Source: Chthoniobacteraceae bacterium
GTDB taxonomy: Bacteria > Verrucomicrobiota > Verrucomicrobiia > Chthoniobacterales > Chthoniobacteraceae
Assembly: GCA_031409335.1 (NCBI GenBank)
Contig: JANNWY010000023.1
Coordinates: 1 to 20,278, forward strand
DNA length: 20,278 nt
Direction of reading: 5' to 3'
Positions 2,673 to 20,142 of this stretch are shown piece after piece; position 1 is the first letter of the stretch, and every line of letters begins with the position of its first letter. The position numbers were made by a program, and so were the translations under genes. The notes under the pieces are model-generated. The model saw only the letters and a list, made by a program, of their open reading frames with translations. It searched no databases and was not told the origin of the DNA.

Positions 2673-5600
2673 TTACGGTCGCGGGCCGACGACGTTTGCG
2701 AATTGAACGATCGTCCTCGATCCCGTAGCGCTGGTGGAACTGGCGGCGAGGCCGACCAGGCATTGCGCGGGAAGATTGACGGTGGCGGTTCCAATGGCGG
2801 TCCAAATCGCGCCGTCCGTGGAAATGGAGCCGGTGAAACTGGCTCCCTGGCGCGTGAGTTTCACCCAGCCGGGCAGCGCGGGCGCGGGCGCGATGATTCT
2901 TTGCACGGTGGTCGCGATGCCATCGCGCCAGCGCAGAGTGGCGCGGGAGTTGGCCTGAAAATTCAGCGCGGCGTAGCGCGCGCCGGGCAGCAGCGATTCG
3001 CGGAACATCAGGCCGCCGAACGATTGCGAAGTCACAGCGCGCAATGAATCCACGCGGGCGATGATTTCACCGTCGCCCGTCCACGGCAGCCAGACGAAAT
3101 GGATCTCGTCCGCGGCCAGGCCAAGACCCGTGCCTGCCGCGCGGACGGTGAAGAGGTTTGCGGTCGCATTGGCGAGACCGGCTGCCTTGCCGATGTCCTG
3201 CGAAATCCACGGTGCGGGCAGCGGATCGGGGCCGGAAACGGTGACGCTCACCGGGCTCGATGTCGTGACCCCGCCGACATTGTCGGTGGCGCGCGCGGTG
3301 ATCGAGTAACTCCCTGGCGAGACCCCGTTCCAGATGAAGACGAACGGCGGTGCAGTCGCCGCACCTAGCTTTTGTGAGCCGCTGAAAAACTCGACCTTCG
3401 CAATGCTCCCGTCCGCATCGCCCGCATTCGCCACGATCGGGATTTCGGCGGGCGCGAGAAACTGAGCGAGATTCGCTGGCCTTCTGAGCGAAACCGTCGG
3501 CGGCTGATTCGCCAGCGGGCTGACGGTCACCAGCAACGCCTCCGAAACGCCGATGCCGCCGTCGCCGTCGTCGATGAGCGCAGTCGCGCCGCGCCTGCCG
3601 ACGATGGTGAATTTCCCCGCGATCCGACGCAGGATCGCCTGCGCGGAGGCGGGCGTGGCGGCTTCGTTGAAGTCCACCCGCAGCGGAATCGCGCCCGTCC
3701 CGCCAGTCATCGCGCCCACCACCGTCCCGCCGAATCGGACGTTTGAACCGGTGACGCCGACCTGCCCCGGCCCGTGGCCTTCCGGCAAAATCGAAAGCAC
3801 GTCGCCAACGCGCGGAGCGGAAAGGGCGACGCGCAATTTCCCGAACTCAATGCCCGCGCTGTCCGCATCGGTGATCGTCGCGGCGGCGTCGAGAATTTGC
3901 GGAGATGGATTCGCAGCGAGCGGCTGACCGGGAGCGGACCACGCGGCCTGCGGCGCGATGTTGGCCGCGTTCGGGTAAAGCCGCGCGTTGCGGATCACCT
4001 TCGCGCCGAGGTCGTCGGTGACGGTGAGCTGGATGCGAAAAAAGTAAGTCTCGGTGAGGCTGTGGATCGGCGAGATGAGCGCGGCGGCTTCCGCTCCGAA
4101 GACCGCGGGCTCGCCGTGCTGGTGTTCGTTGTGGTGGAGGAAGACGATCCATTGCGACATGGTCGGATGCCCGGGGACTTCGGTGACGCGCCGCTTCAGC
4201 GCGTACTCCGTTTCGCCTTCGAGCGGATATTTCGTGCCGTCGATCGGGCTCAGCAGCGTCACTTCCGGCAGCGTGTGATTCACAAAAATCTGGAGCGTCG
4301 CCTGGTCCGTTCCGTTTGCGGAATCCGTGACGGTCAGCGTCACATCGAAACGCCGCGCACCCGCCGCCGTGAAGACGTGGGTGGGCGAGGGGAGAGTGCT
4401 CGTGGTGCCATCGCCAAAGTCCCACAAAAACGTGAGCGGAAGATTATCGGGATCGAGCGAACCGGCGCTGCTGAAATCCACGCTCAACGGGGCGGGACCG
4501 AGCGTGGCGCTGGCCGACGCGGCGGCGGTCGGCGCGAGATTTCCGCCGGGCGCGTACACGATTTTGTAGATTTCCCCGGCCCCGAGATCGACGGCGTAGA
4601 GCGCGCCGAGGGTCGGGTGCGTCGCGAGAAAAACGGGCGCGCCGCCGGTCGCAAAATCGGCGACTTGCGTTGGGCGGTGGTTCGCGTCGAAGGCGACGGT
4701 CTTGATCCAGTTCGTGGCGAAATCGGCGTGGAAATACAGACCGCGAAATGCCTCGGGAAAATCTGTGCCGTTGTAAAAAACGCCACCCACATTCGCGCGC
4801 GCGATGAACTGCGGCCCGTTCACGTGCGAGCCCGGCGCGCCAACGAGAATTTCGCCCGCGGTCGTATCGAAAAACGTCGCCGCGCGCACCGGCCCGACCG
4901 GGTCCGTGAGCCGCCCGATGTCGAGGACGGGTCGCGCGTGCATGAAGCGCGGAATGCTGGCTGGCACTTGCTGCGCGGGGTTCAGCGGGTTCGGCCACGA
5001 GGGCGTCGCGAGCGTTTCCTGGATGAGCAAGTCGCGAAAATTGAAGAAGCCGCCGAGCGGATTTGGCGCGTCGCGATTTGGAACCGTGCGAGCGAAATAA
5101 CTCTCGTGCCGGTTCAGCCCCTCGAACAGCGGCCAGCCGCAATTCCTGCGCGGGCCATGGATCACGTCGATCTCCTCCCACGACGCCCAGCCGACATCGC
5201 CGAGCACGATCACGCCGGGATCGGCCTCCGCGGGATCGTGGCTGCCGGTCTCGGGGCGGACGGTGAAGCGGAATGGATTTCGCAGCCCAAGCGTCCACAC
5301 GCGCGAGCGCGCGGCGCGCGGATTTGCCGGATCGAAAAAGGGATTGCTCGCGATGCCGTCGCCGGTTTCGGGGTCGATGCGGATGATTTTGCCACTGAGC
5401 GAATCGACGAGTTGCGCGCGAAACGCACCGACATTTTCCTTCACGGAAATGATGCCGTCGGCGAGTGCCTGCGCGGCGTAGGTTGGATTGGGAACGCTGC
5501 CGTCATCGACCTCGTCGTAGTTCGCCGCCTCGCCGCACGAGGCGAGCAGCGTGCCATCGTTGCCAAAGACGAGATGGCCGACGCCGTGCGATTGAAAAAG

Positions 5601-6155
5601 GATCGGGAAGCCGGTCGATTTCGTCTCGCCGACGAGCACCTTCCGGCTCGCGGGATCGACGCTGCGCAATCCGTCCGCCACTCGCGCCGTGTAGCGGGTG
5701 ATGCGCCCGATCGTCGCGGCGAAATATTCGTTCGTCGCGGGGTTGTAAGCGGGCGTGCCGGCGTTCAGCAAATGATGCCGGTCCACGACGTAGCTCAGGT
5801 AGATGAATCCGTTCTGGTGAAAGTTCGGATGCAGCGCGACGCCGAGCAGCCCGTGATCGCGCCACGCGCCGACTTCATCGCTGATGTCGATGAGTGGCGT
5901 CGCGAGTTTCACGCCATTTTCGACGATCCACACCCGGCCCGCGCGCTCCCAGACGTAAACGCGATTTGCGGCTTCGGGACTGGGATCGAAGGCGAGGCCT
6001 ACGGGCTCGTTCCATCCGCTCGCGACTGCCTGCTCGGAAAATCCCGCGGGAAGGGTGAACGCGTGGAGTGGCGTGAATGTGGCCAAGAAGAAAATGCACG
6101 CGATGATGACGGCGGGGATTTTGAACGCGGTAGTGAGTGAAATGGGCGTGGTCAT
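2673..6155 (-). CDS. Secreted PQQ-dependent sugar dehydrogenase-like (GSDH beta-propeller) protein with PKD, Ig-like and C-terminal ConA/DUF1349-like domains
   Basis: 1160 aa. Signal peptide; GSDH motifs (GLLGVALHPNF, SLSGKIIRID, GLRNPFRF, GDVGWASWEEID, NCGWP); PKD (LTFLWDFGDG...HVF...VTLTVTD); Ig-like (DADGSIAKVEFFSG...YSITARATDN); DUF1349-like (GDGEIIARVDS...GGLMFRESL...WVKLTRQG...VGLA). Confidence 0.9.
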   Translation of the reverse strand: MTTPISLTTAFKIPAVIIACIFFLATFTPLHAFTLPAGFSEQAVASGWNEPVGLAFDPSPEAANRVYVWERAGRVWIVENGVKLATPLIDISDEVGAWRDHGLLGVALHPNFHQNGFIYLSYVVDRHHLLNAGTPAYNPATNEYFAATIGRITRYTARVADGLRSVDPASRKVLVGETKSTGFPILFQSHGVGHLVFGNDGTLLASCGEAANYDEVDDGSVPNPTYAAQALADGIISVKENVGAFRAQLVDSLSGKIIRIDPETGDGIASNPFFDPANPRAARSRVWTLGLRNPFRFTVRPETGSHDPAEADPGVIVLGDVGWASWEEIDVIHGPRRNCGWPLFEGLNRHESYFARTVPNRDAPNPLGGFFNFRDLLIQETLATPSWPNPLNPAQQVPASIPRFMHARPVLDIGRLTDPVGPVRAATFFDTTAGEILVGAPGSHVNGPQFIARANVGGVFYNGTDFPEAFRGLYFHADFATNWIKTVAFDANHRPTQVADFATGGAPVFLATHPTLGALYAVDLGAGEIYKIVYAPGGNLAPTAAASASATLGPAPLSVDFSSAGSLDPDNLPLTFLWDFGDGTTSTLPSPTHVFTAAGARRFDVTLTVTDSANGTDQATLQIFVNHTLPEVTLLSPIDGTKYPLEGETEYALKRRVTEVPGHPTMSQWIVFLHHNEHQHGEPAVFGAEAAALISPIHSLTETYFFRIQLTVTDDLGAKVIRNARLYPNAANIAPQAAWSAPGQPLAANPSPQILDAAATITDADSAGIEFGKLRVALSAPRVGDVLSILPEGHGPGQVGVTGSNVRFGGTVVGAMTGGTGAIPLRVDFNEAATPASAQAILRRIAGKFTIVGRRGATALIDDGDGGIGVSEALLVTVSPLANQPPTVSLRRPANLAQFLAPAEIPIVANAGDADGSIAKVEFFSGSQKLGAATAPPFVFIWNGVSPGSYSITARATDNVGGVTTSSPVSVTVSGPDPLPAPWISQDIGKAAGLANATANLFTVRAAGTGLGLAADEIHFVWLPWTGDGEIIARVDSLRAVTSQSFGGLMFRESLLPGARYAALNFQANSRATLRWRDGIATTVQRIIAPAPALPGWVKLTRQGASFTGSISTDGAIWTAIGTATVNLPAQCLVGLAASSTSATGSRTIVQFANVVGPRP

Positions 6156-6222: not shown

Positions 6223-8766
6223 TCAGGGTAGCGTTACTTTCAGGCGGATGTGGCGCGGGCTGTTGGCGGAGGCGGGTGTGTTGTCGCGCACGCGGAGTGT
6301 TGTCGGCGAGTTGGTTTCGATCGTCGTTCCGAGTGAGGACCACGATGCCGGCACGGTGAGATTGCCGGTGACTTCGATGCTGAATACGAGGTCGGTCGCG
6401 GCGGGATTTCGCGCGAGCGTGAGGCGCAGGAATTTGTCGGGACCGATGCTTTCCAAATCGACCGTGATGCCGCCGACCCCGGCAGCCAGCGGATCGTGCG
6501 CGAGCGCGTATTCGAGCAGATTCACCTCGCCGTCGCGATCGGGATTCGCGGTCAGGCCCGCGATGGCGGGATTCGGATTTGGGCCGAAATGATCGAGCGT
6601 CCACTGCTCGATCGGCGTGTTCGGATAAAGGCGGACCTCGCGCACCACGCTCGCGCCGAGGTCGTCGGTGACGGTGAGCTGGACGCGGTATAAATACGTT
6701 TCCGTCGCGCTGTACGCGGGCGAGATCAGGACGCTCGTTGTGTTCGCGAGGATGGGCGGTTCGGCGTGGGAATGTTCGTTGTGATGCAGGAAGACGCGCC
6801 ATTGCGTGGTCGTCGGATGGCCGGGTGATTCCGTGACGCTGCGCGTGAGCTGATAGGAAGTCGCGGCGGCGGTGGAATACCTCGTGCCGTCGAGCGGAGT
6901 CAGGATTTGGGCCGCGGGCAGTGTGTGATTCGCGAAGATCGGCAGGCTCGCCTGCGCAGTCGCGCCCGCGGCGTCGGTGACGGTCAGCGTGACATCGAAA
7001 CGCCGCGTGCCGGGCGCGGTGAAAACGTGCGTCGGCGCGGCAGCCGTGCTCGTGTTGCCGTCGTCAAAACTCCAAAGAAACGTGAGCGGCTGGCCGTCGG
7101 GATCGAGCGATCCGGCGCTGCTGAAAGTCACGCTCAACGGCGATGCGCCGATCTTCACCGACGCGGACGCCACGACTTTAGGCGGCTGATTTCCGCCCGG
7201 CGCATAGACGATCTTCCGCACCGTCGCGTCCGCATAATCGACGACGAAAAGCCCGCCGAGCGTGGGATGCGTCGTCAGAAAAACGGGCGCGCCGCCGGTC
7301 GCGAAATCGCGCACTTCGATCGGACGATAGTTCGCGCCGAGCGTGATCGCCTTGATCCAGCCGCGCCCGTAATCCGCGTGGAAATATGCGTGATGATAGA
7401 TCTCGGGAAAATCCTCGCCGTGATAGACCACGCCGCCAGTGCTCGCATTCGCGCCAAACTGCGGCCCCGCCACCGGCGAACCCGGCGCGCCGACCTGCGC
7501 CTCGCCCGCGGTCGTCCCATTGAAAACTGGCACGAGCGCCTGGTCGAAATGCGCCGCGTCGATGACGGGCCGCGTGTGCATGAAGCGGTGCAGCGTCGCG
7601 GGAATTTGCTGCGCGGGATCGAGCGGATTCGGCCACGAGGGCGGCGCGAGCGTTTCCTGAATGATCAAATCGCGGAATTTGAAAAAGCCGCCGAGCGGAT
7701 TCGGCGCATCGAGATTTACCGGCGAGAAAAAATCGAAACTCGCGTGACGCGTGAGCCCCTCGAAGAGCGGCCAGCCGCAATTTTTCCCCGGCCCGTCGAT
7801 CACCTCGATGCTTTCCCACGCGCCCCAGCCCACGTCGCCGAGCAGGATCACGCCAGGATTTCCCTCCGCGGGATCGTGCCCGCCCGTTTCGGGATGGACG
7901 GTGAAGCGATATGGATTGCGAAAACCAAGCGCCCACACGCGCGAGCGCGGCGCACGCGGATTTGCGGGATCGAAAAACGGATTGCTCGCGAGCCCGTTGC
8001 CCGTCGCCGGATCGAGCCGCAGCACTTTCCCGCTCAGCGAATCGACGAGCTGCGAACGAAATGTGCCGACGTTTTCCTTTGGCCGCAGAATGCCATCGAG
8101 CAACGCCTGCGGCGCGAAGCTGATCGCGGGATTGCTGCCATTATCGACCTCGAAAAAATTCGCCGCCTCGCCGCACGACGCCAGCAGCGTGCCATCATTC
8201 CCAAACACCAGATGCCCGACGCCGTGCGACTGATGGACGATGGGAATCCCCGTCGTGATCGACTCCCCGAGCAGCACCGTGCGGCTCGCGGGAGCGACGC
8301 TGCGAAAGCCGTCGCTCGCCCGCGCCGTGTAGCGCGTGATGCGCCCGATCGTCGCCGCGAAGTCGGTGTTCGCCTGCGGGTCGTACGACGGCGTGACCGC
8401 ATTCAGCAAGTGATAGCGGTCCACGACGTAGAAGAGGTAGATGTGTCCGTTCTGCTGAAAGTTCGGATGCAGCGCGAAGCCGAGCATCCCGTAGTCGCCC
8501 CAGTTCGCGACCTCGTCGTGAATGTCGATGAGCGGCGTCGCGAGCTTCACGCCGTTTTCGACGAGCCACACGCGGCCCGCGCGTTCCCAGATGTAAAAAC
8601 GATTCGCGCCTTGCGGAGTCGGGTCGATGGCGATGCCGACGGGATCGGTCCAGCCGCTGCCGATGAGTTGCTCGGAGAATCCGGGCGGGAGAGTGAGGGC
8701 GCGGGCTGGTGAGAAAATCGCGAGCCAGATCACGGCGAGCAGGGCGGGAGTGGGAATGCGATTCAT
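6223..8766 (-). CDS. Secreted GSDH-like + PKD protein with a Verrucomicrobia-type C-terminal extracellular domain; paralog of 2673..6155
   Basis: 847 aa. Same GSDH and PKD motifs (GMLGFALHPNF, GFRNPYRF, FLWSFDDG); C-terminus DRDGEVNLLEYALAHDP...RNPAATDL...VRDNTP...HIRLKVTLP. Confidence 0.9.
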   Translation of the reverse strand: MNRIPTPALLAVIWLAIFSPARALTLPPGFSEQLIGSGWTDPVGIAIDPTPQGANRFYIWERAGRVWLVENGVKLATPLIDIHDEVANWGDYGMLGFALHPNFQQNGHIYLFYVVDRYHLLNAVTPSYDPQANTDFAATIGRITRYTARASDGFRSVAPASRTVLLGESITTGIPIVHQSHGVGHLVFGNDGTLLASCGEAANFFEVDNGSNPAISFAPQALLDGILRPKENVGTFRSQLVDSLSGKVLRLDPATGNGLASNPFFDPANPRAPRSRVWALGFRNPYRFTVHPETGGHDPAEGNPGVILLGDVGWGAWESIEVIDGPGKNCGWPLFEGLTRHASFDFFSPVNLDAPNPLGGFFKFRDLIIQETLAPPSWPNPLDPAQQIPATLHRFMHTRPVIDAAHFDQALVPVFNGTTAGEAQVGAPGSPVAGPQFGANASTGGVVYHGEDFPEIYHHAYFHADYGRGWIKAITLGANYRPIEVRDFATGGAPVFLTTHPTLGGLFVVDYADATVRKIVYAPGGNQPPKVVASASVKIGASPLSVTFSSAGSLDPDGQPLTFLWSFDDGNTSTAAAPTHVFTAPGTRRFDVTLTVTDAAGATAQASLPIFANHTLPAAQILTPLDGTRYSTAAATSYQLTRSVTESPGHPTTTQWRVFLHHNEHSHAEPPILANTTSVLISPAYSATETYLYRVQLTVTDDLGASVVREVRLYPNTPIEQWTLDHFGPNPNPAIAGLTANPDRDGEVNLLEYALAHDPLAAGVGGITVDLESIGPDKFLRLTLARNPAATDLVFSIEVTGNLTVPASWSSLGTTIETNSPTTLRVRDNTPASANSPRHIRLKVTLP

Positions 8767-9552: not shown

Positions 9553-10494
9553 GTGAAAAAAATCGTCTCGCTCGTCATCAGCCTCGGGCTGCTGGCGATC
9601 CTTTATTGGCAGATCGACTTCGCGCGGCTGCTCCCCGTTTTCGCGGGATGCGATCCGCTGTGGATGACGCTGAGCCTCGCGATGGTCGTGCCGCTCACGC
9701 TTTTTACAGCATGGCGATTGCAGCAGCTCATGCCGGCCCGCGGGCAGATGAGTTTTGGCGAAGCGAACCGGCTCATCCTCGTCGCGAGCGTGCTGAATCT
9801 CGTGCTGCCCTCGAAGATGGGGGACATCGCCAAAGCGTGGTTCATGCGTGACCGCGGGCATTTGGATGGCTCGCTCGCGCTGTCGCTCGTGGTGTTTGAG
9901 AAAGCGTGCGACATGCTTTCGCTGCTGCTGTGGTGCGCATTCGGGCTCGCGCTCTATCCGCGGAAGGACGCGCTGTTCTGGGTGATGACGGCGGCGGTCG
10001 CGGCGATGTTCATCTTGGGATCGCTGGTGCTCATTTCGGAGAAATGCGCGCAGTGGTTCTTCGCGTTGGCGGCACGGTTTGCGCCGGGAAAGGCGCGAGC
10101 GAAGTTTGAAAAACTCGCCGCTTCGTGGAGCGAGATGCACGGCTACTTTTGGGGAAGTCGCGCGCGGCTTTGGAAGGTCGTGAGCACTTCGGTTTTCATC
10201 TGGTTTCTCCACTTGCTGCAAATCTGGATGTTCATCCTCGCGCTTCGCGCCAGCGCACCGTTCGTGGCCAGCCTCGCGCTTTCACCGCTCGCGATTTTGG
10301 CGGGATTGTTCCCGCTGACATTCGCCGGCGTCGGCACGCGCGATGCAGCGCTCGTGTTTTTCTACGCGCCTTATTTCAGCGCCCCCACCGCCGCCGCCCT
10401 TGGCCTGCTCTGTACCGCGCGCTACGTCATGCCCGCGCTCGGCGGGCTGCCTTTCGCCGGGCCGTATTTCAATTCGGCGCGGGCGGAAAAGTGA
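9553..10494 (+). CDS. Lysylphosphatidylglycerol synthase TM-region / flippase-like (UPF0104) membrane protein
   Basis: 313 aa, multi-pass hydrophobic; motifs AWRLQQL, NLVLPSKMGDIAK, SLVVFEKACD, FPLTFAGVGTRDAA. GTG start. Confidence 0.85.
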   Translation: MKKIVSLVISLGLLAILYWQIDFARLLPVFAGCDPLWMTLSLAMVVPLTLFTAWRLQQLMPARGQMSFGEANRLILVASVLNLVLPSKMGDIAKAWFMRDRGHLDGSLALSLVVFEKACDMLSLLLWCAFGLALYPRKDALFWVMTAAVAAMFILGSLVLISEKCAQWFFALAARFAPGKARAKFEKLAASWSEMHGYFWGSRARLWKVVSTSVFIWFLHLLQIWMFILALRASAPFVASLALSPLAILAGLFPLTFAGVGTRDAALVFFYAPYFSAPTAAALGLLCTARYVMPALGGLPFAGPYFNSARAEK

Positions 10495-10514
10495 CGCTGG
10501 CTTTCCAGGCTGTG
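10491..10514 (+). repeat. Solitary degenerate REP copy (left boundary of cassette)
   Basis: gtgacgctggctttccaggctgtg versus consensus gtgacacaggctttccagcctgtg. Its GTGA supplies the TGA stop of the upstream gene. Confidence 0.75.
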
Positions 10515-10564
10515 ATCCAAAATACGCCTTCACACCCTGCGACATTTTCGCAAACCTCCGCCGC

Positions 10565-11737
10565 ATGAAGATGTTCCCCTCGGTTGTCGCCCTCCTTGTT
10601 GCCTCGACGCTCGCGTACGCCGCCGCACCCGTCGTCTCGAATATCCGCGCCGCGCAGCGGGCGGGGACGAAGCTGGTGGATATTTACTACGATGTCGCGG
10701 ATGCCGAGGGCGACGCGCTCACGGTCGAGATTCAGGTCTCGAATGACAACGGCGCCACCTACGCCGTGCCCGCGTTCAGCTTCAGCGGGGCGGTGGGCGG
10801 CGGCGTCACGCCAGGCGCGAATCGGGCGGCGGTGTGGAATGCGGGCTTCGATTGGGACGGCCAGTATTCCGCGCAGACGCGCGTGAAAGTCACCGCCCAC
10901 GACGGCCTCGCCCCGCCCGCCGGCATGGTCTATGTGCCGCTGGGGACTTTTTCGATGGGCGGAACACAGTATGCGAACGAGCAGCCGATCCACAACGTCA
11001 CTACCGACGCCTTTTTCACGGATCGTTTTGAAGTGACCTCGGCTTTGTATGCAAACGTGCGAACATGGGCTGCGTCGAACGGCTACAGCATGGGTAGCGG
11101 GACCGCGGCTGGGCAGAGCCATCCGATTGTGGGCATCTCGTGGTACGACGCGGTGAAATGGTGCAACGCCCGTTCACGAAAGGAAAATCTCACGCCCGTT
11201 TATTACACCGACACTGCGCAGACGAATGAATACAAGACCGGCACTCCGGGCATCACCAATGCCATGGTGAAATGGAACGCCAACGGCTATCGCCTCCCAA
11301 CGGAGGGCGAGTGGGAAAAAGCTGCGCGTGGTGGAAGCAATCAACTCAATTATCCGTGGGGCAACTCTGCGTCCAACTTTCAAGCTAACGCCCTTGGCAG
11401 CGGCGATCCGTTTGAAGGTAGCAATCTAGCGACAACTCCGGTGGGTTATTACAATGGTTCCCAGACTCCCACCGGCCCGGACATGGCAAATAGTTACGGG
11501 CTTTACGATATGGCCGGAAACGCCTGGGAATGGTGTTGGGATTGGTATGACGTATCGTACTACAGCGATCCAAATGCGGGATCGAACCCACAAGGTCCGA
11601 CAACAAGTAATAGCCGCGTTGTCCGGGGCGGCTCGTGGAACCAAAACTCCAGCTACCTGCGTTGCGCTTTTCGTAACTATGGCGGGCCATCAAACTCCGA
11701 CAACGCCATTGGCTTCCGGTGTGTTCGTGGCCTTTAG
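10565..11737 (+). CDS. Secreted formylglycine-generating enzyme family (FGE-sulfatase/SUMF1, C-type-lectin fold) protein with N-terminal Ig-like domain
   Basis: Signal peptide; GMVYVPLGTFSMG, FEVT, ISWYDAVKWCN, GYRLPTEGEWEKAARGG, YPWG, NSYGLYDMAGNAWEWCWDWY, RVVRGGSW, GFRCVR. It lacks the catalytic Cys pair of true FGE. The start could be 10565 or 10571. Confidence 0.92.
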   Translation: MKMFPSVVALLVASTLAYAAAPVVSNIRAAQRAGTKLVDIYYDVADAEGDALTVEIQVSNDNGATYAVPAFSFSGAVGGGVTPGANRAAVWNAGFDWDGQYSAQTRVKVTAHDGLAPPAGMVYVPLGTFSMGGTQYANEQPIHNVTTDAFFTDRFEVTSALYANVRTWAASNGYSMGSGTAAGQSHPIVGISWYDAVKWCNARSRKENLTPVYYTDTAQTNEYKTGTPGITNAMVKWNANGYRLPTEGEWEKAARGGSNQLNYPWGNSASNFQANALGSGDPFEGSNLATTPVGYYNGSQTPTGPDMANSYGLYDMAGNAWEWCWDWYDVSYYSDPNAGSNPQGPTTSNSRVVRGGSWNQNSSYLRCAFRNYGGPSNSDNAIGFRCVRGL

Positions 11738-11800
11738 TTTTTTTGCTGCCGACCCTCTTCCTCTTTGCCAGAAGCCGTGCGACGCGCCCGCAAACCGAAT

Positions 11801-12025
11801 GTGACACGGCCTTTCCAGGCCGTGATCCCCACGCCGCCGAAGGCGCACTTCTCCGCGGGATCGCGCGTCCGAAGAAAAAGAGTGCGCCTTCGGCGGTGGG
11901 CTTTGGACCACGGGCTGGAAAGCCCGTGTCACATTCACGGCTTGGAAAAGCCGTGGCACCTTCACAGGCTGCCGTTTCGACAGGCTCAAGGCCCCGAGCC
12001 TGTCGAGGGGGAAAGCCTGTGTCAC
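11801..12025. repeat. REPIN/BIME-like cluster of four REPs upstream of the RAYT
   Basis: REPs at 11801-11824(+), 11909-11932(-), 11936-11959(-) and 11963-12025(-, split by a 39-nt insert). Inner 16-bp perfect inverted repeat ccgccgaaggcgcact (11834-11849) / agtgcgccttcggcgg (11881-11896). Confidence 0.9.
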
Positions 12026-12057
12026 CTTGCGGAAGGCCCGGGCCACACTTTTCGTTT

Positions 12058-12969
12058 ATGAAGCCGCTCGATAAATCGGCGCACATCGCGAAGCGGCGGC
12101 GGAATCTGCCGCATTGGGAGCAGGCGGGCTGCACTTACTTCATCACCTGGCGGCTCGCGGATTCGCTGCCGGGGTCGCAACTCGCGGCATGGCGCGAGGA
12201 GCGCGCACGCTGGCTGGCGCTGAATCCGCCGCCGTGGACGCCGCGTGTGCTGGCGGATTACCAGCGCGAATTCATCGACCGCATCGAGCACTGGCTGGAT
12301 GCGGGCCACGGCGCGTGCATCCTGCGCCGCCCGGAGGTGCGCGCTGTCCTCGCCAAGGCGCTGCATTTTTTCGACGGGGAGCGGTATGAACTCGAAGGGG
12401 CGGTCATCATGCCGAATCACGTCCACGTCCTCGTGACGCCGAAATGTGACACAGCCTTTCCAGGCTGTGATCCGCAATGTGGCTCGGGCTTTCCAGCCCG
12501 TGATCCCCACGCCGCCGCTGCCGGCGCACTTCCCCCATCGGCGGACGGGGAAGGTCCCGGAACACAGGCTGGAAAGCCTGTGTCACATTTAGCGCATTCG
12601 CTTTCGGGGATTTTGCAGTCTTGGAAGGGATTTAGCGCGAGGGAGATCAATCGGCTACTCGGTCGGAAGGGGCCGCTGTGGATGGATGAGAATTTCGATC
12701 ACACCGTCCGCAGCAGCGAGCAACTCGCGCATTTCCAGCGATACCTCGCGGCGAATCCGGTAAAGGCGCGGCTGCGGGAGGAGGAATACTATCTGTGGCA
12801 GCAGAGTGACACAGGCTTTCCAGCCTGTGAGCCCCAACCCGCCGAAGGCGCACTTCTCTACCCCGAAGCAGAAGATCAAATCAGCACAGCCCTGGCAGGC
12901 TGTGAGCCGGGTGGACCGCGGGCTGGAAAGCCCGTGTCACATTCCCGCGCCAACCCTTTCCCGGCATGA
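12058..12969 (+). CDS. REP-associated tyrosine transposase (RAYT / TnpA-REP, HUH Y1 family)
   Basis: RRNLPHW, TYFITWRLADSLP, LDAGHGACIL, HUH motif IMPNHVH, ILQSWKGFSAREIN, LWMDENFDHTVRS, catalytic RYLAANPVKA (Tyr at 12742-12744). It is surrounded by REPs, and the frame is open upstream to 11719. Confidence 0.92.
   Translation: MKPLDKSAHIAKRRRNLPHWEQAGCTYFITWRLADSLPGSQLAAWREERARWLALNPPPWTPRVLADYQREFIDRIEHWLDAGHGACILRRPEVRAVLAKALHFFDGERYELEGAVIMPNHVHVLVTPKCDTAFPGCDPQCGSGFPARDPHAAAAGALPPSADGEGPGTQAGKPVSHLAHSLSGILQSWKGFSAREINRLLGRKGPLWMDENFDHTVRSSEQLAHFQRYLAANPVKARLREEEYYLWQQSDTGFPACEPQPAEGALLYPEAEDQISTALAGCEPGGPRAGKPVSHSRANPFPA
12442..12590. repeat. Intragenic in-frame REPIN (three REPs) inside the RAYT
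   Basis: REPs at 12446-12469(+), 12479-12502(+) and 12563-12586(-). The ends aaatgtgaca / tgtcacattt are perfectly inverted. Confidence 0.9.
12806..12940. repeat. REPIN forming the 3' end of the RAYT ORF
   Basis: Consensus REP 12806-12829(+), spacer motif ccgccgaaggcgcacttctc, degenerate hairpin cacagccctggcaggctgtg (12885-12904), and REP 12917-12940(-). Confidence 0.9.
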
Positions 12970-15900
12970 TGCGACGGCTGGCAATCCTGCTATCGATCCT
13001 GTGGGTGCTGACGCGCGTCGGCACCGCCGCGAATTTCGATGAATCGCCCGCTTTCGAGTTGAACACGCTGACGCCCGGCGGCACAGGCACGGCGGTTTCG
13101 CTCCCATTCGTGCTCAATACGCTGACGCCGGGTGCAACGAGCGTGGCGGTCTCGGGCAGCTTCACGGTGAACACGCGAGGGCCGACGGGGCTGAGTGGGA
13201 GCCGGGTTTCGGGCGGGTTTGTGGTGGATACGCGGAATACGACTACGACCTTGCTGACGGTGAATGCTCCACCGGGCATCAGCGGCGGAGCGGCGATCGT
13301 GCTGAGTGCGACTGCGACATTTTCCAGCGGGCCGCCAGAGGACGTGAGCGATCGTGCGACGTTTAGCGTCACGGGCGGACCCGCCAACACGCGGATGATC
13401 GGACGAACCCTCCGCACCGGTTACAGCGCGACTCCGGTGACGGCGATATTGCGCGCGAGTTATTGGCGCAATACCCAGCAGATTGCCTCCCAGCCGCGCA
13501 CGATCGTGATCGGCCCGGCCCTGAACGTCACCCTGAGCGCGCAACCACCGGTCGGAGTCGGGAGTGGCGGCACCGCATCGTGGACGCTCAACGCCACGGC
13601 AGCGGCGATCGGAGGCGTGCCACCTTTCAGCAATGTGCAGTGGCGCTGGCGTGGAAACAATTTGAACTCAACGAGTCTTCACCTTGTTGAGTCCGTGGGC
13701 GGCCCGCTTGGAGCCGGGCAACTGGATGTGACTGTCACTGATGCGAACGGCAAAATCGGGAGTGCCTTCACCATCCTTTCGCTGAACAAGGCACCGGTGA
13801 TGAGCCAGCCGCTCCAGACCACTACGACTTTGAAAAATGAGCCCGGCACGCTTTACCATAGTGACGGAGTGACGGGAGTGAATCTGCGGACTGAGCGGAA
13901 GAATGCCGGACTGCTGGTGATCGCGCATGGTCTGATCGACAGGGTCGAATTGCCGAATGCCGGCAATCCCTGCGGTGGCTGGATGGTGCGAATGGCGCAG
14001 GCCATCGAAACGAAGCTAACCGTTAGCGCGGATGGCCCGCCAAATGTGCTGCTCTTCGACTGGAACGAAAGCGCGGACCCTTCCAAATACCTCGGGACAA
14101 ATGCGCGAAACCAAGCGGCCAAAGACTTGCTTGCTGAACTTGGCGAGCGACGGAATCAGCTCGCCGGTCCAATTTTTGCGCCTGTAGTCTACGATGCACT
14201 GAGTCCAGTACAACAGAAACTCACGGATATTCGTTCCATCCGGGAAATAGCGGAAAGACAAGGAGCGGCTCTTGCCAAATGGATCGAGACACAAATCTCC
14301 CTTGGCAAGATTTCCGTCGATGAAGAAATTCATTTGGTTGGTCACAGCGCGGGCGGGTTTGTCGTCGCGACCTGCGCCGGGAGACTGCTGGCGAAGCGCC
14401 CCGCGATTTCGAAGCTGCTGGTGACGACCCTCGACACACCGCTGTTTCGGAAGGTGCATATCGAAGGCGTTAAAGATCACGGTGCCCGGATTGAGCGGTA
14501 CAATTCCTCGTGGATCGGCAATACAAATCCGGCCCTGGCGACGATCCCGGATCGGCGGACCTTTTATCCCACGCTGCTTTTTTCCTCCTCCCCAGCGAAT
14601 TTCCCGCGATTTTTGAATTCCGAGCCAATCGTCATTCCCGACGCCGGTTACCGCGTTGGTGAGGCAACATCGACGGGCACCTGTCCAGACAGTGATGCCT
14701 TCGCGATGCACAGCGAGGCGCATGAGTGGTATATCGAATCGGTTTTGAAGGCCGGAGAGTGGCGTGACGGGTTCTATTTTTCACCGTTCCTCGGCAACAC
14801 TTGGAGCGGGAGCGGCGGCGTTGCTGCCGCGCAGGTGCGCTTTCCGCAGGCGGTCGCTGGAATGCTACAACCTCCGCCGCCAGATCAACCGCTCAACGGA
14901 TTCCAGACGTTTGGGCAGGTCGCGGAGAATACGGGCGAATACACGCTCACGGAACTGGACGATGCGGGCATCTTTCAAACGCTGACCGTTCCGATTGGTG
15001 CAACTGACCTGAAATTTCGCGTGCGGTTCGATCAGATCGGCGATGGAGATTTTCTCGAGGTGAGTTTTGGCGACCATGCGCCACTGAGAGTGATCGACGG
15101 ACTCGCCACGAACGCGGGGCAATGGGTCGAGTATGAAGTCCCGACGCCAGCGATCGCTGGTGAAACCGGCACACTCGTTTTCAGACTTTCAAGCAGGGGC
15201 ACAAGCGATGCCGTGGTGCGCCTGGACAATCTCGCGTTTGTGATGTCGGACGACCCCGATGGAGACGGGCTATCCAATTCCGCAGAAGCTCTGCTTGGTG
15301 CAGACCCGTTGGTCTTTGACTCCGATGGCGATGGATTGAGCGATGGGTTTGAAGCCCAAGATTCTCACACCAACGCGCTGATTTTCGACACCGACGGCGA
15401 TGGCGTGGACGACTACTTGGAGGTATTGGCTGGGACGAATTCGGGGAGTGGGAATTCGGTGTTTTCGATTAAGTCGATCGCGCCTGCGGCTGGCGGTGGT
15501 GTGGCACTTTCCTGGACGGGCCGGAGCGGGAGCACGTATCGCGTGCTGCGCTCGGCGACGCCGGATTTTGCGAGCTTCGATGTGATCGCGGCTGCCGTGC
15601 CGGGAGTCGCGCCGCTGACGAGCTACACGGATGCGACGGTGGATTCGCAGCAGTTGGCGGGGATGTTTTACCGGGTCGAAGTCGCGGAGGCTCCGGCTTA
15701 TGCGGCGAACATGAACGGGGACTCGGATGGCGATGGTATCCCGGATGGATGGGAACTGGATCGCGGGTTTAATGCGGATTTTGCGGCGGATGCTTGGCTC
15801 GATACGGACGGCGATGGGAGCAGCACGCTGCTCGAATTCGCGCTCGGGACCGATCCGCGTGCGAACTCGCGCGATGGGATCGGGATCTACACGGACGAGG

Positions 15901-16109
15901 ACGGCTACCTCACGCTCACGACAAGTCGCAATCCTGCGGCGACGGGTTTGCAGCTTCGCATCGCGGTTTCCGTCGATCTGGCGACGTGGTATTCCGACGC
16001 CGCGCATGTGACGATCCTCGCGAATACGCCCACGCTGCTCAAAGCGCGTGACAACATTCCACTCGGAAGTGCCGAGCGTCGGTTCATCAGACTCGAGGTT
16101 AACAAGTAG
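12966..16109 (+). CDS. Large secreted alpha/beta-hydrolase (lipase-like) protein with DxDGDG calcium-binding repeats and Verrucomicrobia-type C-terminal domains
   Basis: 1047 aa. Signal peptide; LLVIAHGL, NVLLFDW, nucleophile elbow IHLVGHSAGG (GHSAG at 14340-14354), VTTLDTP, candidate catalytic His in HSEAHEWY; several DxDGDG repeats; C-terminal FYRVEV and FIRLEV modules. Confidence 0.85.
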   Translation: MMRRLAILLSILWVLTRVGTAANFDESPAFELNTLTPGGTGTAVSLPFVLNTLTPGATSVAVSGSFTVNTRGPTGLSGSRVSGGFVVDTRNTTTTLLTVNAPPGISGGAAIVLSATATFSSGPPEDVSDRATFSVTGGPANTRMIGRTLRTGYSATPVTAILRASYWRNTQQIASQPRTIVIGPALNVTLSAQPPVGVGSGGTASWTLNATAAAIGGVPPFSNVQWRWRGNNLNSTSLHLVESVGGPLGAGQLDVTVTDANGKIGSAFTILSLNKAPVMSQPLQTTTTLKNEPGTLYHSDGVTGVNLRTERKNAGLLVIAHGLIDRVELPNAGNPCGGWMVRMAQAIETKLTVSADGPPNVLLFDWNESADPSKYLGTNARNQAAKDLLAELGERRNQLAGPIFAPVVYDALSPVQQKLTDIRSIREIAERQGAALAKWIETQISLGKISVDEEIHLVGHSAGGFVVATCAGRLLAKRPAISKLLVTTLDTPLFRKVHIEGVKDHGARIERYNSSWIGNTNPALATIPDRRTFYPTLLFSSSPANFPRFLNSEPIVIPDAGYRVGEATSTGTCPDSDAFAMHSEAHEWYIESVLKAGEWRDGFYFSPFLGNTWSGSGGVAAAQVRFPQAVAGMLQPPPPDQPLNGFQTFGQVAENTGEYTLTELDDAGIFQTLTVPIGATDLKFRVRFDQIGDGDFLEVSFGDHAPLRVIDGLATNAGQWVEYEVPTPAIAGETGTLVFRLSSRGTSDAVVRLDNLAFVMSDDPDGDGLSNSAEALLGADPLVFDSDGDGLSDGFEAQDSHTNALIFDTDGDGVDDYLEVLAGTNSGSGNSVFSIKSIAPAAGGGVALSWTGRSGSTYRVLRSATPDFASFDVIAAAVPGVAPLTSYTDATVDSQQLAGMFYRVEVAEAPAYAANMNGDSDGDGIPDGWELDRGFNADFAADAWLDTDGDGSSTLLEFALGTDPRANSRDGIGIYTDEDGYLTLTTSRNPAATGLQLRIAVSVDLATWYSDAAHVTILANTPTLLKARDNIPLGSAERRFIRLEVNK

Positions 16110-16152
16110 CTGCGGCAATGATAAGGAGCGTTTCAGGCTGTTTGGCTGGCGG

Positions 16153-16176
16153 CACAAGCTGGAAAGCCTGTGTCAC
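16153..16176 (-). repeat. Solitary REP copy (right boundary of cassette)
   Basis: cacaagctggaaagcctgtgtcac is the reverse complement of the consensus with 1 change. Confidence 0.88.
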
Positions 16177-16358: not shown

Positions 16359-17483
16359 ATGCCTGTTGTCTCACGTGGTCTTGAAGGAATCGTCGCGGCT
16401 GAAACGCAAATCGGGGATGTGCGCGGGGACATCGGTCAGCTCATTTATCGCGGGTACGACATTAACGGACTCGCGGGGAAAGTTTCCTTCGAGGAGACCG
16501 TTTTTTTGCTCTGGCACGGGCGGCTGCCGCGGCAGCGCGAGCTGGATGCGCTGACGACGGCACTGCGGGCGGAGCGCGAGCTGCCGCAGGGGGTGATCGA
16601 CTTTATCGTGAAGGCGCCGAAGACGGCGGCGCCGATCGACATCATGCGCACGGGCGTGAGCATGCTCGGTTGTTACCCGACGGTGCGGCATGATTTGGAC
16701 ATGGCGGAGAGTCTCGCGATCGCGATCAAGCTGGTCGCGCAGATCGGGATCATGGCGGCGTATTTTCATCGGGCGCGGAATGGGAAGGAGCTGCCGCCGA
16801 TTCGGAAGGATCTCGGCGAGGCGGCGCATTTTCTGTGGTTGATGACGGGCGAGGAGCCGAGCGCGGAGGCGGTGCGCACGCTGGATGTGGCGTATGTGCT
16901 ACACGCGGAGCATGGGTTTAATGCTTCGACTTTCACGGCGCGCGTGGTGGCTTCGACTTTGAGCGATATGTATTCGTCGGCGAGCGCGGCGATCGGCGCG
17001 CTGAAGGGGCCGCTGCATGGCGGGGCGAATGAAGGGGTGATTCACATGCTCCAGGAAATCGGGTCGCTGGATCACGTGGATGCGTGGATCGAGGAGGCGC
17101 TCGCGCAGAAGAAGAAGATCATGGGCATCGGGCATCGGGTTTACAAAGTGCTCGATCCGCGCGCGCCGCATTTGAAGGCGATGGCGATCAAGTTGAGCGA
17201 GGAACTCGGCGAGGCGAAATGGATTCAGATGAGCGAGCGGATCGCGGCGATCATGAAGGAGCGGAAGGGGCTGAATGCGAACGTCGATTTCTACAGCGCG
17301 ACGGTTTATTACTCGCTGGATATTCCGACCGATCTTTTCACGCCGATCTTCGCGATCTCGCGGATGAGCGGCTGGACGGCGCACATCCTGGAGCAGCTCG
17401 CGGACAACCGCCTTTTCCGCCCGCTCAGCGAATACACCGGACCGGCTCCGGGGCTGGTGGCGAAGCCAATCGCGGAGCGGTAG
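16359..17483 (+). CDS. gltA: Citrate synthase (short citrate/2-methylcitrate synthase type)
   Basis: 374 aa. GLEGIVAAET, LIYRGY, HAEHGFNASTF, GALKGPLHGGANE, IMGIGHRVYK..DPRA, NVDFYSA, RMSGWTAH. Confidence 0.95.
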   Translation: MPVVSRGLEGIVAAETQIGDVRGDIGQLIYRGYDINGLAGKVSFEETVFLLWHGRLPRQRELDALTTALRAERELPQGVIDFIVKAPKTAAPIDIMRTGVSMLGCYPTVRHDLDMAESLAIAIKLVAQIGIMAAYFHRARNGKELPPIRKDLGEAAHFLWLMTGEEPSAEAVRTLDVAYVLHAEHGFNASTFTARVVASTLSDMYSSASAAIGALKGPLHGGANEGVIHMLQEIGSLDHVDAWIEEALAQKKKIMGIGHRVYKVLDPRAPHLKAMAIKLSEELGEAKWIQMSERIAAIMKERKGLNANVDFYSATVYYSLDIPTDLFTPIFAISRMSGWTAHILEQLADNRLFRPLSEYTGPAPGLVAKPIAER

Positions 17484-17605
17484 TAGCCCGTTGAAGAAGC
17501 CTCACGCAAAGATCGCCAAGGTCGCAAAGAGGAACTTCATCAGAGAACCTTTGCGGCCTTTGCGATCTTTGCGTGAGGAACCATGAGTTTTTCAACAGGC
17601 TCTTA
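17481..17605. repeat. Palindromic MITE-like element filling the gltA/murI convergent gap; possible bidirectional terminator
   Basis: Ends tagtagcccgttgaagaa and tttttcaacaggctctta. Inner 30-bp inverted repeat 17500-17529 / 17549-17578 with 2 mismatches, built from ~9-nt cgcaaag units. Confidence 0.8.
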
Positions 17606-19968: not shown

Positions 19969-20142
19969 CTAGCAGCCTGTTGAAAAAGTCGCCGATTCCA
20001 ATTCCGGATTCCTGCTCTTGATCTTGATCTTGATCTTGATCTTGATCCTCTGTTTGCCAGAGTAAACAACCCTCGCATTGGAATCAAGATCAGGAGCAAG
20101 AGCAAGAGCAGGAGTCCGCCCCGAGGTTTTTCGACAGCCTAG
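19969..20142. repeat. Palindromic MITE-like element with hexamer-repeat core
   Basis: Ends ctagcagcctgttgaaaaa and tttttcgacagcctag. The core (tcttga)x5 at 20016-20045 faces atcaagatcaggagcaagagcaagagcaggag (20083-20114). Confidence 0.8.

Follow-up and report, generated by a model that had tools for sequence, protein, structure and literature searches.

In the REPtron of E. coli, the gene for a REP-associated tyrosine transposase (RAYT, or TnpA-REP) is located between pairs of repetitive extragenic palindromes (REPs) at one fixed site, from which it may be deleted with the REPs left behind, or give way to the toxin-antitoxin genes hicAB (Ton-Hoang et al., 2012, PMC3333891). Multiplication of REPs in the vicinity of their own RAYT has been described (PMC8266576), and two inverted REPs with a spacer make up a REPIN (REP doublet forming a hairpin), which typically measures 60-70 bp in Pseudomonas (PMC3390384). 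Diversity-generating retroelements (DGRs) of architecture B2 consist of avd, a reverse transcriptase (RT) gene and a template repeat (TR), and act on targets with a C-type lectin fold of the formylglycine-generating enzyme (FGE) type, such as TvpA in Treponema (Wu et al., 2018, PMC5758913). Here, we describe a locus in which the two systems seem to meet, on a 20,278-nt contig of a Chthoniobacteraceae bacterium (GCA_031409335.1, JANNWY010000023.1), the whole of which is hereafter called the window. A RAYT gene with many REPs is placed between a gene for a secreted protein with an immunoglobulin-like (Ig-like) and an FGE/C-type lectin domain, for short the FGE gene, and a gene for a large secreted partner. 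We lean towards the view that this block is a surface islet that once carried a DGR, and that the hot-spot gap between its two secreted genes is at present occupied by a passenger REPtron which seeds REPs nearby.

The argument begins with the FGE gene. The top Foldseek match to a structure model of its product was the DGR target TvpA (2y3c, E 1.8e-14). Its only cysteines are at positions 200, 324, 367 and 386, and the cysteine pair of formylglycine-generating enzyme, a catalytic pair that we take to follow an RGGS motif, is not among them. The last 110 nt of the gene align without gaps to the template of a relative (L328; handles denote loci, L, contigs, C, genomes, G, and proteins, P, and G000 is the source assembly), and template adenines are changed at 16 of 32 sites compared with 17 of 76 for other bases (p=0.005). 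The region upstream of the repeat in the same two genes served as a control and has no adenine bias (55/139 vs 204/482). A comparison of two variable repeats (5/11 vs 33/85) is no test of template bias and was not used. An adenine-wildcard scan identified no cognate template in the source assembly, which is 98% complete in 326 contigs; the best candidate had 26 non-adenine mismatches in 100, and a DGR on C149, included as a control, was recovered with 0. The same misfit led us to reject the idea that the C149 DGR acts in trans on the window gene. That DGR (33588-36624; RT, avd and TR) has two FGE-type targets, one with a variable repeat that differs at adenines only. Likewise, in 150 genomes of the family the RT of the cassette had no counterpart above 48% identity. 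Thus, the window shares with B2 systems (Wu et al., 2018) the target fold and the C-terminal variable repeat, but avd, RT and TR are absent, no remote template was found, and the window also lacks the GC-rich hairpin that follows the variable repeat in L324, L328 and L331 (an inverted repeat, compared side by side by eye), and its target stands out by the Ig-like domain at its N-terminus and by the fixed partner downstream. The gene appears to be an orphan DGR target, with a fossil variable repeat whose engine is gone.

To place the gap in a wider context, FGE was searched in 300 genomes of the order, 150 of the family and 400 of the class, and the partner in the 150 family genomes. Wide flanks were taken for the best-scoring stand-alone matches, 20 regions out of 74 + 46 matches listed; long multi-domain matches and some matches at contig ends were left out. 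The 27 FGE entries represent 26 loci, and the window and L001 come from one genome. A downstream secreted partner with one to four S-x-x-[FVI]-x-[VLF]-[DN]-T-[RLT] motifs at the start of the mature protein was identified in 21 of the 27 entries; in four of the six misses the sequence ends within 1.5 kb, either with the contig or with the stretch retrieved, while a fifth carries a variant motif and the sixth none. Beyond these motifs the partner body is highly variable, and the host neighbours of the islets differ wherever flanks were read. In three entries from other families of the class (L324, L328 and L331) the gap holds a complete avd-RT-TR set, confirmed by RVT_1 and bAvd, and mismatches between TR and variable repeat concentrate at template adenines (17/30, 20/32 and 20/30, against 0/78, 0/76 and 3/78 at other bases), so that these relatives of the window keep a full B2 system with, nearly throughout, adenine-only changes. 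Five gaps contain a full RAYT (the window, L001, L334, L193 and L319), and nine the REP type of the window or a close variant (the window, L001, L334, L226, L231, L315, L317, L321 and L323), six of them without a full RAYT; the gap of L323 retains a RAYT stump of 28 aa. PIN or AbiEii-type genes also occupy the gap, as identified by Pfam in L324, L226, L231 and L100 (the same locus as L334) and by blastp in L323, L315 and L331, and the PIN proteins of REP-bearing gaps are 32-37% identical to that of a DGR-bearing gap. In the FGE tree (11-row set), L324 and L331 group with the window gene (support 88/99 and 98), and an approximately unbiased (AU) test did not reject a single clade for the three DGR-bearing FGE genes (p 0.108). 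Since the lectin gene of the window has an adenine-biased repeat and no template, and relatives keep Avd-RT-TR in the same place, the RAYT and its REPs likely replaced the DGR machinery in the gap. The gene pair itself is class-wide and older than the RAYT. Two side observations concern the gap and its genes: in L100, both islet genes carry internal in-frame deletions that keep their first and last parts (7428-7805 and 9703-10023), and in L319 a short open reading frame (ORF) after FGE (6950-7030) begins in a way that presumably resembles the start of an HRDC-type DGR accessory gene.

The RAYTs of these gaps fall into three dissimilar types: the window RAYT is 29% identical to that of L193 over 62 aa, and has no significant match to that of L319. 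Different repeats accompany the three types, the RAYT tree requires three changes for membership in the cassette, and the REP-bearing FGE genes do not form one clade (p-AU 6e-39). In another genome of the family (G757:C159, L345, positions 1-2700), we observed an avd interrupted by a REP pair, followed by REPs, a RAYT, REPs, an intact RT, a TR and a REP. The RAYT is here 44% identical to that of L193, and the locus, which holds a different DGR from that of the islet, would fit the intermediate expected if RAYTs invade DGRs.

The window RAYT has the HuH and Y---NP motifs, which are invariant across 18 aligned relatives, and its closest solved relative is E. coli TnpA-REP (4er8; profile E 4.7e-6, fold E 1.8e-5); IS200-type matches come close behind, and PF01797 was below its cut-off. 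Hairpin-forming REPs flank the gene and are also dispersed, with 28 copies outside the two RAYT loci of the genome. The nearest RAYTs in titled records are from Verrucomicrobiota, and the closest (L058 and L059, 61-63% identity) are without cargo genes. REPs are found inside the reading frame, as a loop after the HuH motif and as a C-terminal tail, both with low confidence in a structure model whose core is mostly above 90. The same insertion site is used in L001, L058, L059/L099, L060 and L100, and the REP variant and insert length differ from locus to locus in the last four; the spacer from HuH to the following helix is 35-69 aa in REP-inserted sequences vs 17-19 in the other alignment rows listed. 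We considered the in-frame REPs as a novelty and rejected this, as REP insertion between HuH and Tyr is already described for TnpA-REP subclass 2.4 (Quentin et al., 2018, PMC6006769), which equals RAYT group 4 (Bertels et al., 2017, PMC5581495). With that group, to which we liken it by features only, the window RAYT shares HuH and Y---NP, flanking REPs and in-frame REPs. It differs in being part of a two-gene islet found at many sites, and in its REPs, which are 24 nt long (GTGA, an 8-bp stem with C-G, A-T and C-G at its foot, and a TTCC loop), as compared with a long REP with three G-C foot pairs or a double foot in subclass 2.4. The tetranucleotide is mostly GTGA, with GTGG and GTGC as a minority, and the 5' GT[AG]G of RAYT/TnpA-REP systems, as given for subclass 2.4, is thus not the rule here.

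REPs were mapped with a position matrix trained on 33 strict copies, excluding the outer copies of the window, at a cut-off of at least 20 bits. This gave 48 copies for the genome and none for its reversed sequence; 10 of the 48 are in the window, another 10 on C71 and the remaining 28 across 21 other sites. The original prediction had placed all 11 REPs of the window between a forward copy at 10491 and a reverse copy at 16153-16176, around exactly three genes and between a flippase-like gene and gltA. This arrangement was confirmed, with 10 whole REPs and one half copy (13 bits, at 12002), and with Pfam support for both host genes. No REP was found elsewhere in the window at 6 bits or above. 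REPs are rare genome-wide, so the bracketing is not explained by their abundance; with ~6,000 intergenic gaps, a number estimated rather than counted, the chance that two chosen gaps both hold a REP is ~1e-5. Outside the two copies of the block, 12 of the 28 REPs have a stop codon within 11 nt, and three overlap it, as does the REP at 10491. In three relatives, REP-pattern matches fall in the islet at rates (G755 2/2, G748 1/1, G791 1/3 genome-wide) which indicate that the REPs arrived with it; G002 has 23 dispersed copies. The inner pairs of the window are ordinary REPIN-like hairpins of 108-135 nt overall, in contrast to the outer pair, which is 5.6 kb apart with one arm degenerate and thereby unlike a REPIN (PMC3390384). 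L226 (11554-11577) and L317 (5655) each have a REP in frame where the signal peptide of a secreted protein is encoded.

All three genes occur again in the same genome, at C71/C77, in different surroundings: by our reading of their translations, the neighbours encode an aminotransferase and a sialate O-acetylesterase-like protein. Nucleotide identity to this second copy is 79.9% over 10587-11815, 83.7% over 12010-15035 and 87.6% over 15027-16087. The RAYT is intact in both copies; in copy 2, the hydrolase gene is frameshifted and also harbours an insertion sequence (10-nt direct repeat; no Pfam match). The copies are mosaics, with 96% identity in the Ig part, 76% in the lectin core, 61% in the variable repeat, 88% in the RAYT core and 81-92% in the partner, and the steps between these levels fall inside ORFs, hundreds of bases from REPs. 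It might be argued that copy 2 belongs to a related organism binned in by error, which would leave an ordinary REPtron between two genes and no duplication within the genome; the assembly has 326 contigs with 3% contamination, and deoB occurs twice, once on a contig of 5.9 kb. We consider this very improbable, because C71 is 78 kb long, the Ig part is 96% identical, and the contigs of copy 2 track the depth of the window in three runs of one study (~5.5-8.7 vs 5.6-7.7, 14 vs 10-12.5 and 2.9-3.9 vs 2.4-3.5); the many-site and DGR findings are in any case independent of copy 2. Together with the relatives, the comparison supports the notion of a three-gene unit that has come to lie at several chromosomal sites unrelated to each other. 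This, and the alternation of the gap with a DGR, separates the locus from the E. coli REPtron with its one fixed site (Ton-Hoang et al., 2012). Two further relatives of the islet genes were observed in the genome: a 5' fragment of FGE adjoining a pair that by resemblance is AbiEi/AbiEii-like (C311:2203-4100), and an FGE gene with the gene for a hydrolase of 1302 aa immediately downstream (C105:6453-13747).

The strong mosaicism, the intact RAYT in both copies and the repeated presence of unrelated RAYTs in the same gap also bear on the possibility that the RAYT was kept as a diversifier in place of the DGR, nicking the REPs downstream of the variable repeat and thereby promoting exchange of lectin heads or partner segments between copies. 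We find such a functional hand-over quite improbable, since the breakpoints lie in ORFs far from the REPs, the RAYT is often lost, as in the six REP-bearing gaps mentioned above, and ordinary recombination between paralogues suffices for the mosaic pattern.

We also considered that the block is a composite mobilized by its RAYT, which would cut single-stranded DNA at the outer REPs, circularize the 5.7-kb strand and join it to a REP-like or stop-codon GTGA/GTAG target. Several observations speak for such a composite or otherwise weigh against a passenger RAYT that replaced a DGR. Inverted REPs stand at both ends in the window, and copy 2 has REP relics exactly inside its boundary gaps of 73 and 27 nt, so that all four outer ends at two unrelated sites carry REP-like sequence; the relics score 7.8 and 8.6 bits, a range in which the genome has 93 matches of at least 8 bits compared with 31 in the reversed null. 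A host stop codon supplies the tetranucleotide at the left end of the window and the right end of copy 2, and is conserved in G003 and G001. In a single comparison, the left REP agrees over its first 13 nt with the REP-free sequence of G003, apart from a 2-nt gap, as a junction in the stem would. G755 and G748 have hardly any REPs outside this unit, no further gap of the window has any, and uptake of genes by REP units has been proposed (PMC3333891). A REP pair follows directly after the partner genes in L060, a REP lies to the left of FGE in L193 and L315, which with the window makes three strong REP-type cases among the 20 loci examined, and in L226 one lies inside the start of FGE, in the signal peptide. 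Neither an integrase nor an att site was identified as an alternative source of mobility. On the side of the DGR, the FGE tree is unrooted with most deep forks open, and with its root not fixed, DGR-first is not proven. The gap is empty in 9 of the 27 entries, and the DGR could thus be one of several tenants. The target gene of L345 is off the contig, so its membership in the islet is not established, and a single clade of the six cassette RAYTs was not rejected by the AU test (p 0.127, with long branches).

Nevertheless, we regard movement of the block by its RAYT as unlikely. The homology between the copies (~10587 to ~16087) stops inside both outer REPs, and the match of a relative from another study (X5/X6) begins at 10553, also inside the left REP boundary. 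The left outer REP is not in the same orientation in the two copies, and copies that are 80-88% identical are not recent. Most islets are devoid of outer REPs: none was found in L231, L315 (for this REP type), L334 or the right end of L226, where best scores are below 0, and many islets elsewhere have no REP at all. The REP at 10491 sits on a stop codon as three ordinary copies do, and REP pairs 1.7 kb apart surround an ordinary gene next to a cargo-free RAYT in L099. Furthermore, the REPtron of E. coli was found not to be mobile as a whole (PMC3333891). Neither an excised circle nor an empty site was seen, in two comparisons without the power to reveal one. No joint of ~10490 to ~16180 occurred among the contig joints listed (15 of 34, and a further 10), in contigs that drop rare forms. 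Of 30 relatives, nine have the left host gene, and gltA, FGE and RAYT adjoin it in none of these, so that flippase-gltA synteny is missing; gltA has a different upstream gene in G004, and the flanks of copy 2 are differently neighboured in three and two relatives. The similarity of 10490-10582 to C289 was read as a REP plus a generic leader.

Of the exchange locus that the original prediction proposed, what remains is a three-gene unit at several sites, with REPs travelling along and mosaic copies, but not REP pairs as ends of swappable units, for the reasons of homology and identity steps given above. The REP at 12806, proposed as the boundary of the second cargo gene, is one of five inside the RAYT reading frame (12446-12586 and 12806-12940) and hence no intergenic boundary. 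A giant REPIN is weakly supported, as the gene pair exists without REP or RAYT in the nine empty gaps; this goes part of the way to what the original prediction had named as a refutation, namely relatives that keep both cargo genes at this place without REPs or RAYT. Instead, the RAYT likely rides along rather than moving the block, and it likely seeded both outer REPs locally.

Our preferred reading of a former DGR islet with a passenger REPtron would imply the following course of events. The islet would first have carried a DGR, often together with a PIN toxin gene. A REPtron may then have entered the hairpin-rich non-coding parts of the DGR, whereupon recombination or RAYT cutting between REPs could have deleted avd, RT and TR, leaving the lectin tip frozen. 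The RAYT would next have copied REPs into the nearest tolerant spots, which are its own loop, its own tail and the gaps to the left and right, and it may often have been lost again while REPs and toxin genes stayed. Finally, gene transfer and recombination, for which no RAYT is required, would have been the main means by which the islet reached other sites and genomes, with patchwork exchange between its copies.

The secreted partner is a predicted hydrolase with the alpha/beta-hydrolase motif GHSAG at aa 459, and a relative with the same layout matches PF00151 Lipase. Directly after the signal peptide (13029-13240) it carries S-x-x-F-x-L-D-T-R repeats, and the partners of L193-L334, otherwise unrelated, have the same conserved motif in this position in one to four copies. 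The D-T-R motif is perhaps a strand to which the FGE protein docks. A single-chain model of the partner gave a seven-strand N-terminal domain and is silent on binding of the Ig domain, and an Atlas search with the N-terminus had an Ig-like best match at a score of 0.86, which is a lead only. One homologue (P0003, 76% identical) has another variant of the repeat and carries, in addition, an M23 peptidase domain (PF01551) at its N-terminus. Distant homologues (32-38%; L227-L230, L233 and L234) had no Ig+FGE or RAYT alongside in the flanks fetched.

Table 1. Features of the islet and its host neighbours in the window.
Feature	Coordinates	Strand	Evidence or remarks
Left host gene, lysylphosphatidylglycerol synthase TM family (LPG_synthase_TM)	9553..10494	+	PF03706 E 5.7e-33
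Outer left REP, degenerate 5' arm, on host stop codon	10491..10514	+	28.4 bits; 6/8 stem pairs; -2.9 kcal/mol
Secreted Ig-like + FGE/C-type lectin protein, putative orphan DGR target gene	10565..11737	+	PF03781 E 2.4e-55
Putative fossil DGR variable repeat	11624..11734	+	adenine bias vs L328 template
T/C-rich tract, like that after the variable repeat in DGR-bearing relatives	11735..11770	+	judged by eye
REP pair (11801+, 11909-) forming one long hairpin, plus third REP (11936-)	11797..11959		
Half REP (12002-12025) split by another short repeat family	11962..12025		other family: 6 genome copies
RAYT/TnpA-REP	12058..12969	+	HVH aa 121-123, YLAANP aa 229-234
Three REPs in frame inside RAYT, aa 130-177	12446..12586		between HuH and Tyr
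REP pair in frame, RAYT C-terminal tail, aa 250-295	12806..12940		
Secreted partner, 1047 aa	12966..16109	+	signal peptide, four S-x-x-F-x-L-[DN]-T-[RL] repeats, Ig-like part, GHSAG, TSP3_bac
Outer right REP	16153..16176	-	35.7 bits
Right host gene, citrate synthase gltA	16359..17483	+	PF00285 E 1.2e-129

The window is the entire contig C23 of a 7.9-Mb assembly, and its features are given in Table 1. The TGA stop codon of the left host gene is also the TGA of the GTGA in the REP at 10491, and the terminus of this gene, GAAAAGTGACGC, is identical in G003. The stretches rich in A/T-ending codons that were predicted for the two cargo genes are present, and the shift from the flanks is mild: GC content at third codon positions (GC3) is 0.695 for FGE, 0.696 for RAYT and 0.681 for the hydrolase, compared with 0.80 and 0.79 in the flanking genes, with dips to 0.57-0.59 per 100 codons, and the whole genes are in the 13th-16th percentile of 2884 long ORFs. 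Elsewhere in the window, there are two tandem paralogous GSDH-PKD secreted proteins with ~75% nucleotide identity (2673-6155 and 6223-8766), the second of which has a C-terminal domain in common with the islet partner (41% over 127 aa), and three further families of short inverted repeats at 11962-12025, 17500-17578 and 20005-20118 (6, 9 and 11 genome matches).

RAYT-domain relatives are often found inside open frames of 900-1650 aa, in the source genome (C92:8516-12544, C107:15502-19809 and C96:33967-36825) and in many further matches, which suggests in-frame insertion into host genes. A gap between deoB-like and deoA-like genes (C214:49772-51852) is occupied by a further RAYT, which has repeats of its own, together with two A/T-rich ORFs; in L100, this gap contains a decayed FGE-RAYT-PIN-partner islet in its place.

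The component parts of the islet are known, but a RAYT in the slot of a DGR within an islet at many sites was not encountered in the literature searched. This was mostly open-access and yielded no paper that links RAYTs with DGRs or describes the gene pair, though the supplements of PMC5758913, PMC6006769 and PMC3333891 may list such loci.

The islet would exemplify a route of DGR death, in which REPs and RAYTs invade non-coding hairpins and leave frozen targets behind, with L345 as a candidate intermediate. The locus also bears on the role that RAYTs play in their hosts and on their ability, if any, to mobilize genes: with one RAYT at two sites beside the same two neighbours, and with REP substrates inside and outside, the movement of cargo becomes directly testable. 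A more far-reaching proposal, which we hold to be doubtful, is that RAYT-REP systems repeatedly evict DGRs and take over both variation and spread of the islet, by moving or reshuffling a REP-bounded cassette of lectin head and partner between chromosomal sites. If true, a RAYT would be transposing host genes as a unit, with a concrete benefit to the host that could account for RAYT domestication, and the N-terminal D-T-R strands of the partner would serve to attach between one and four variable lectin heads to enzyme bodies that are interchangeable.

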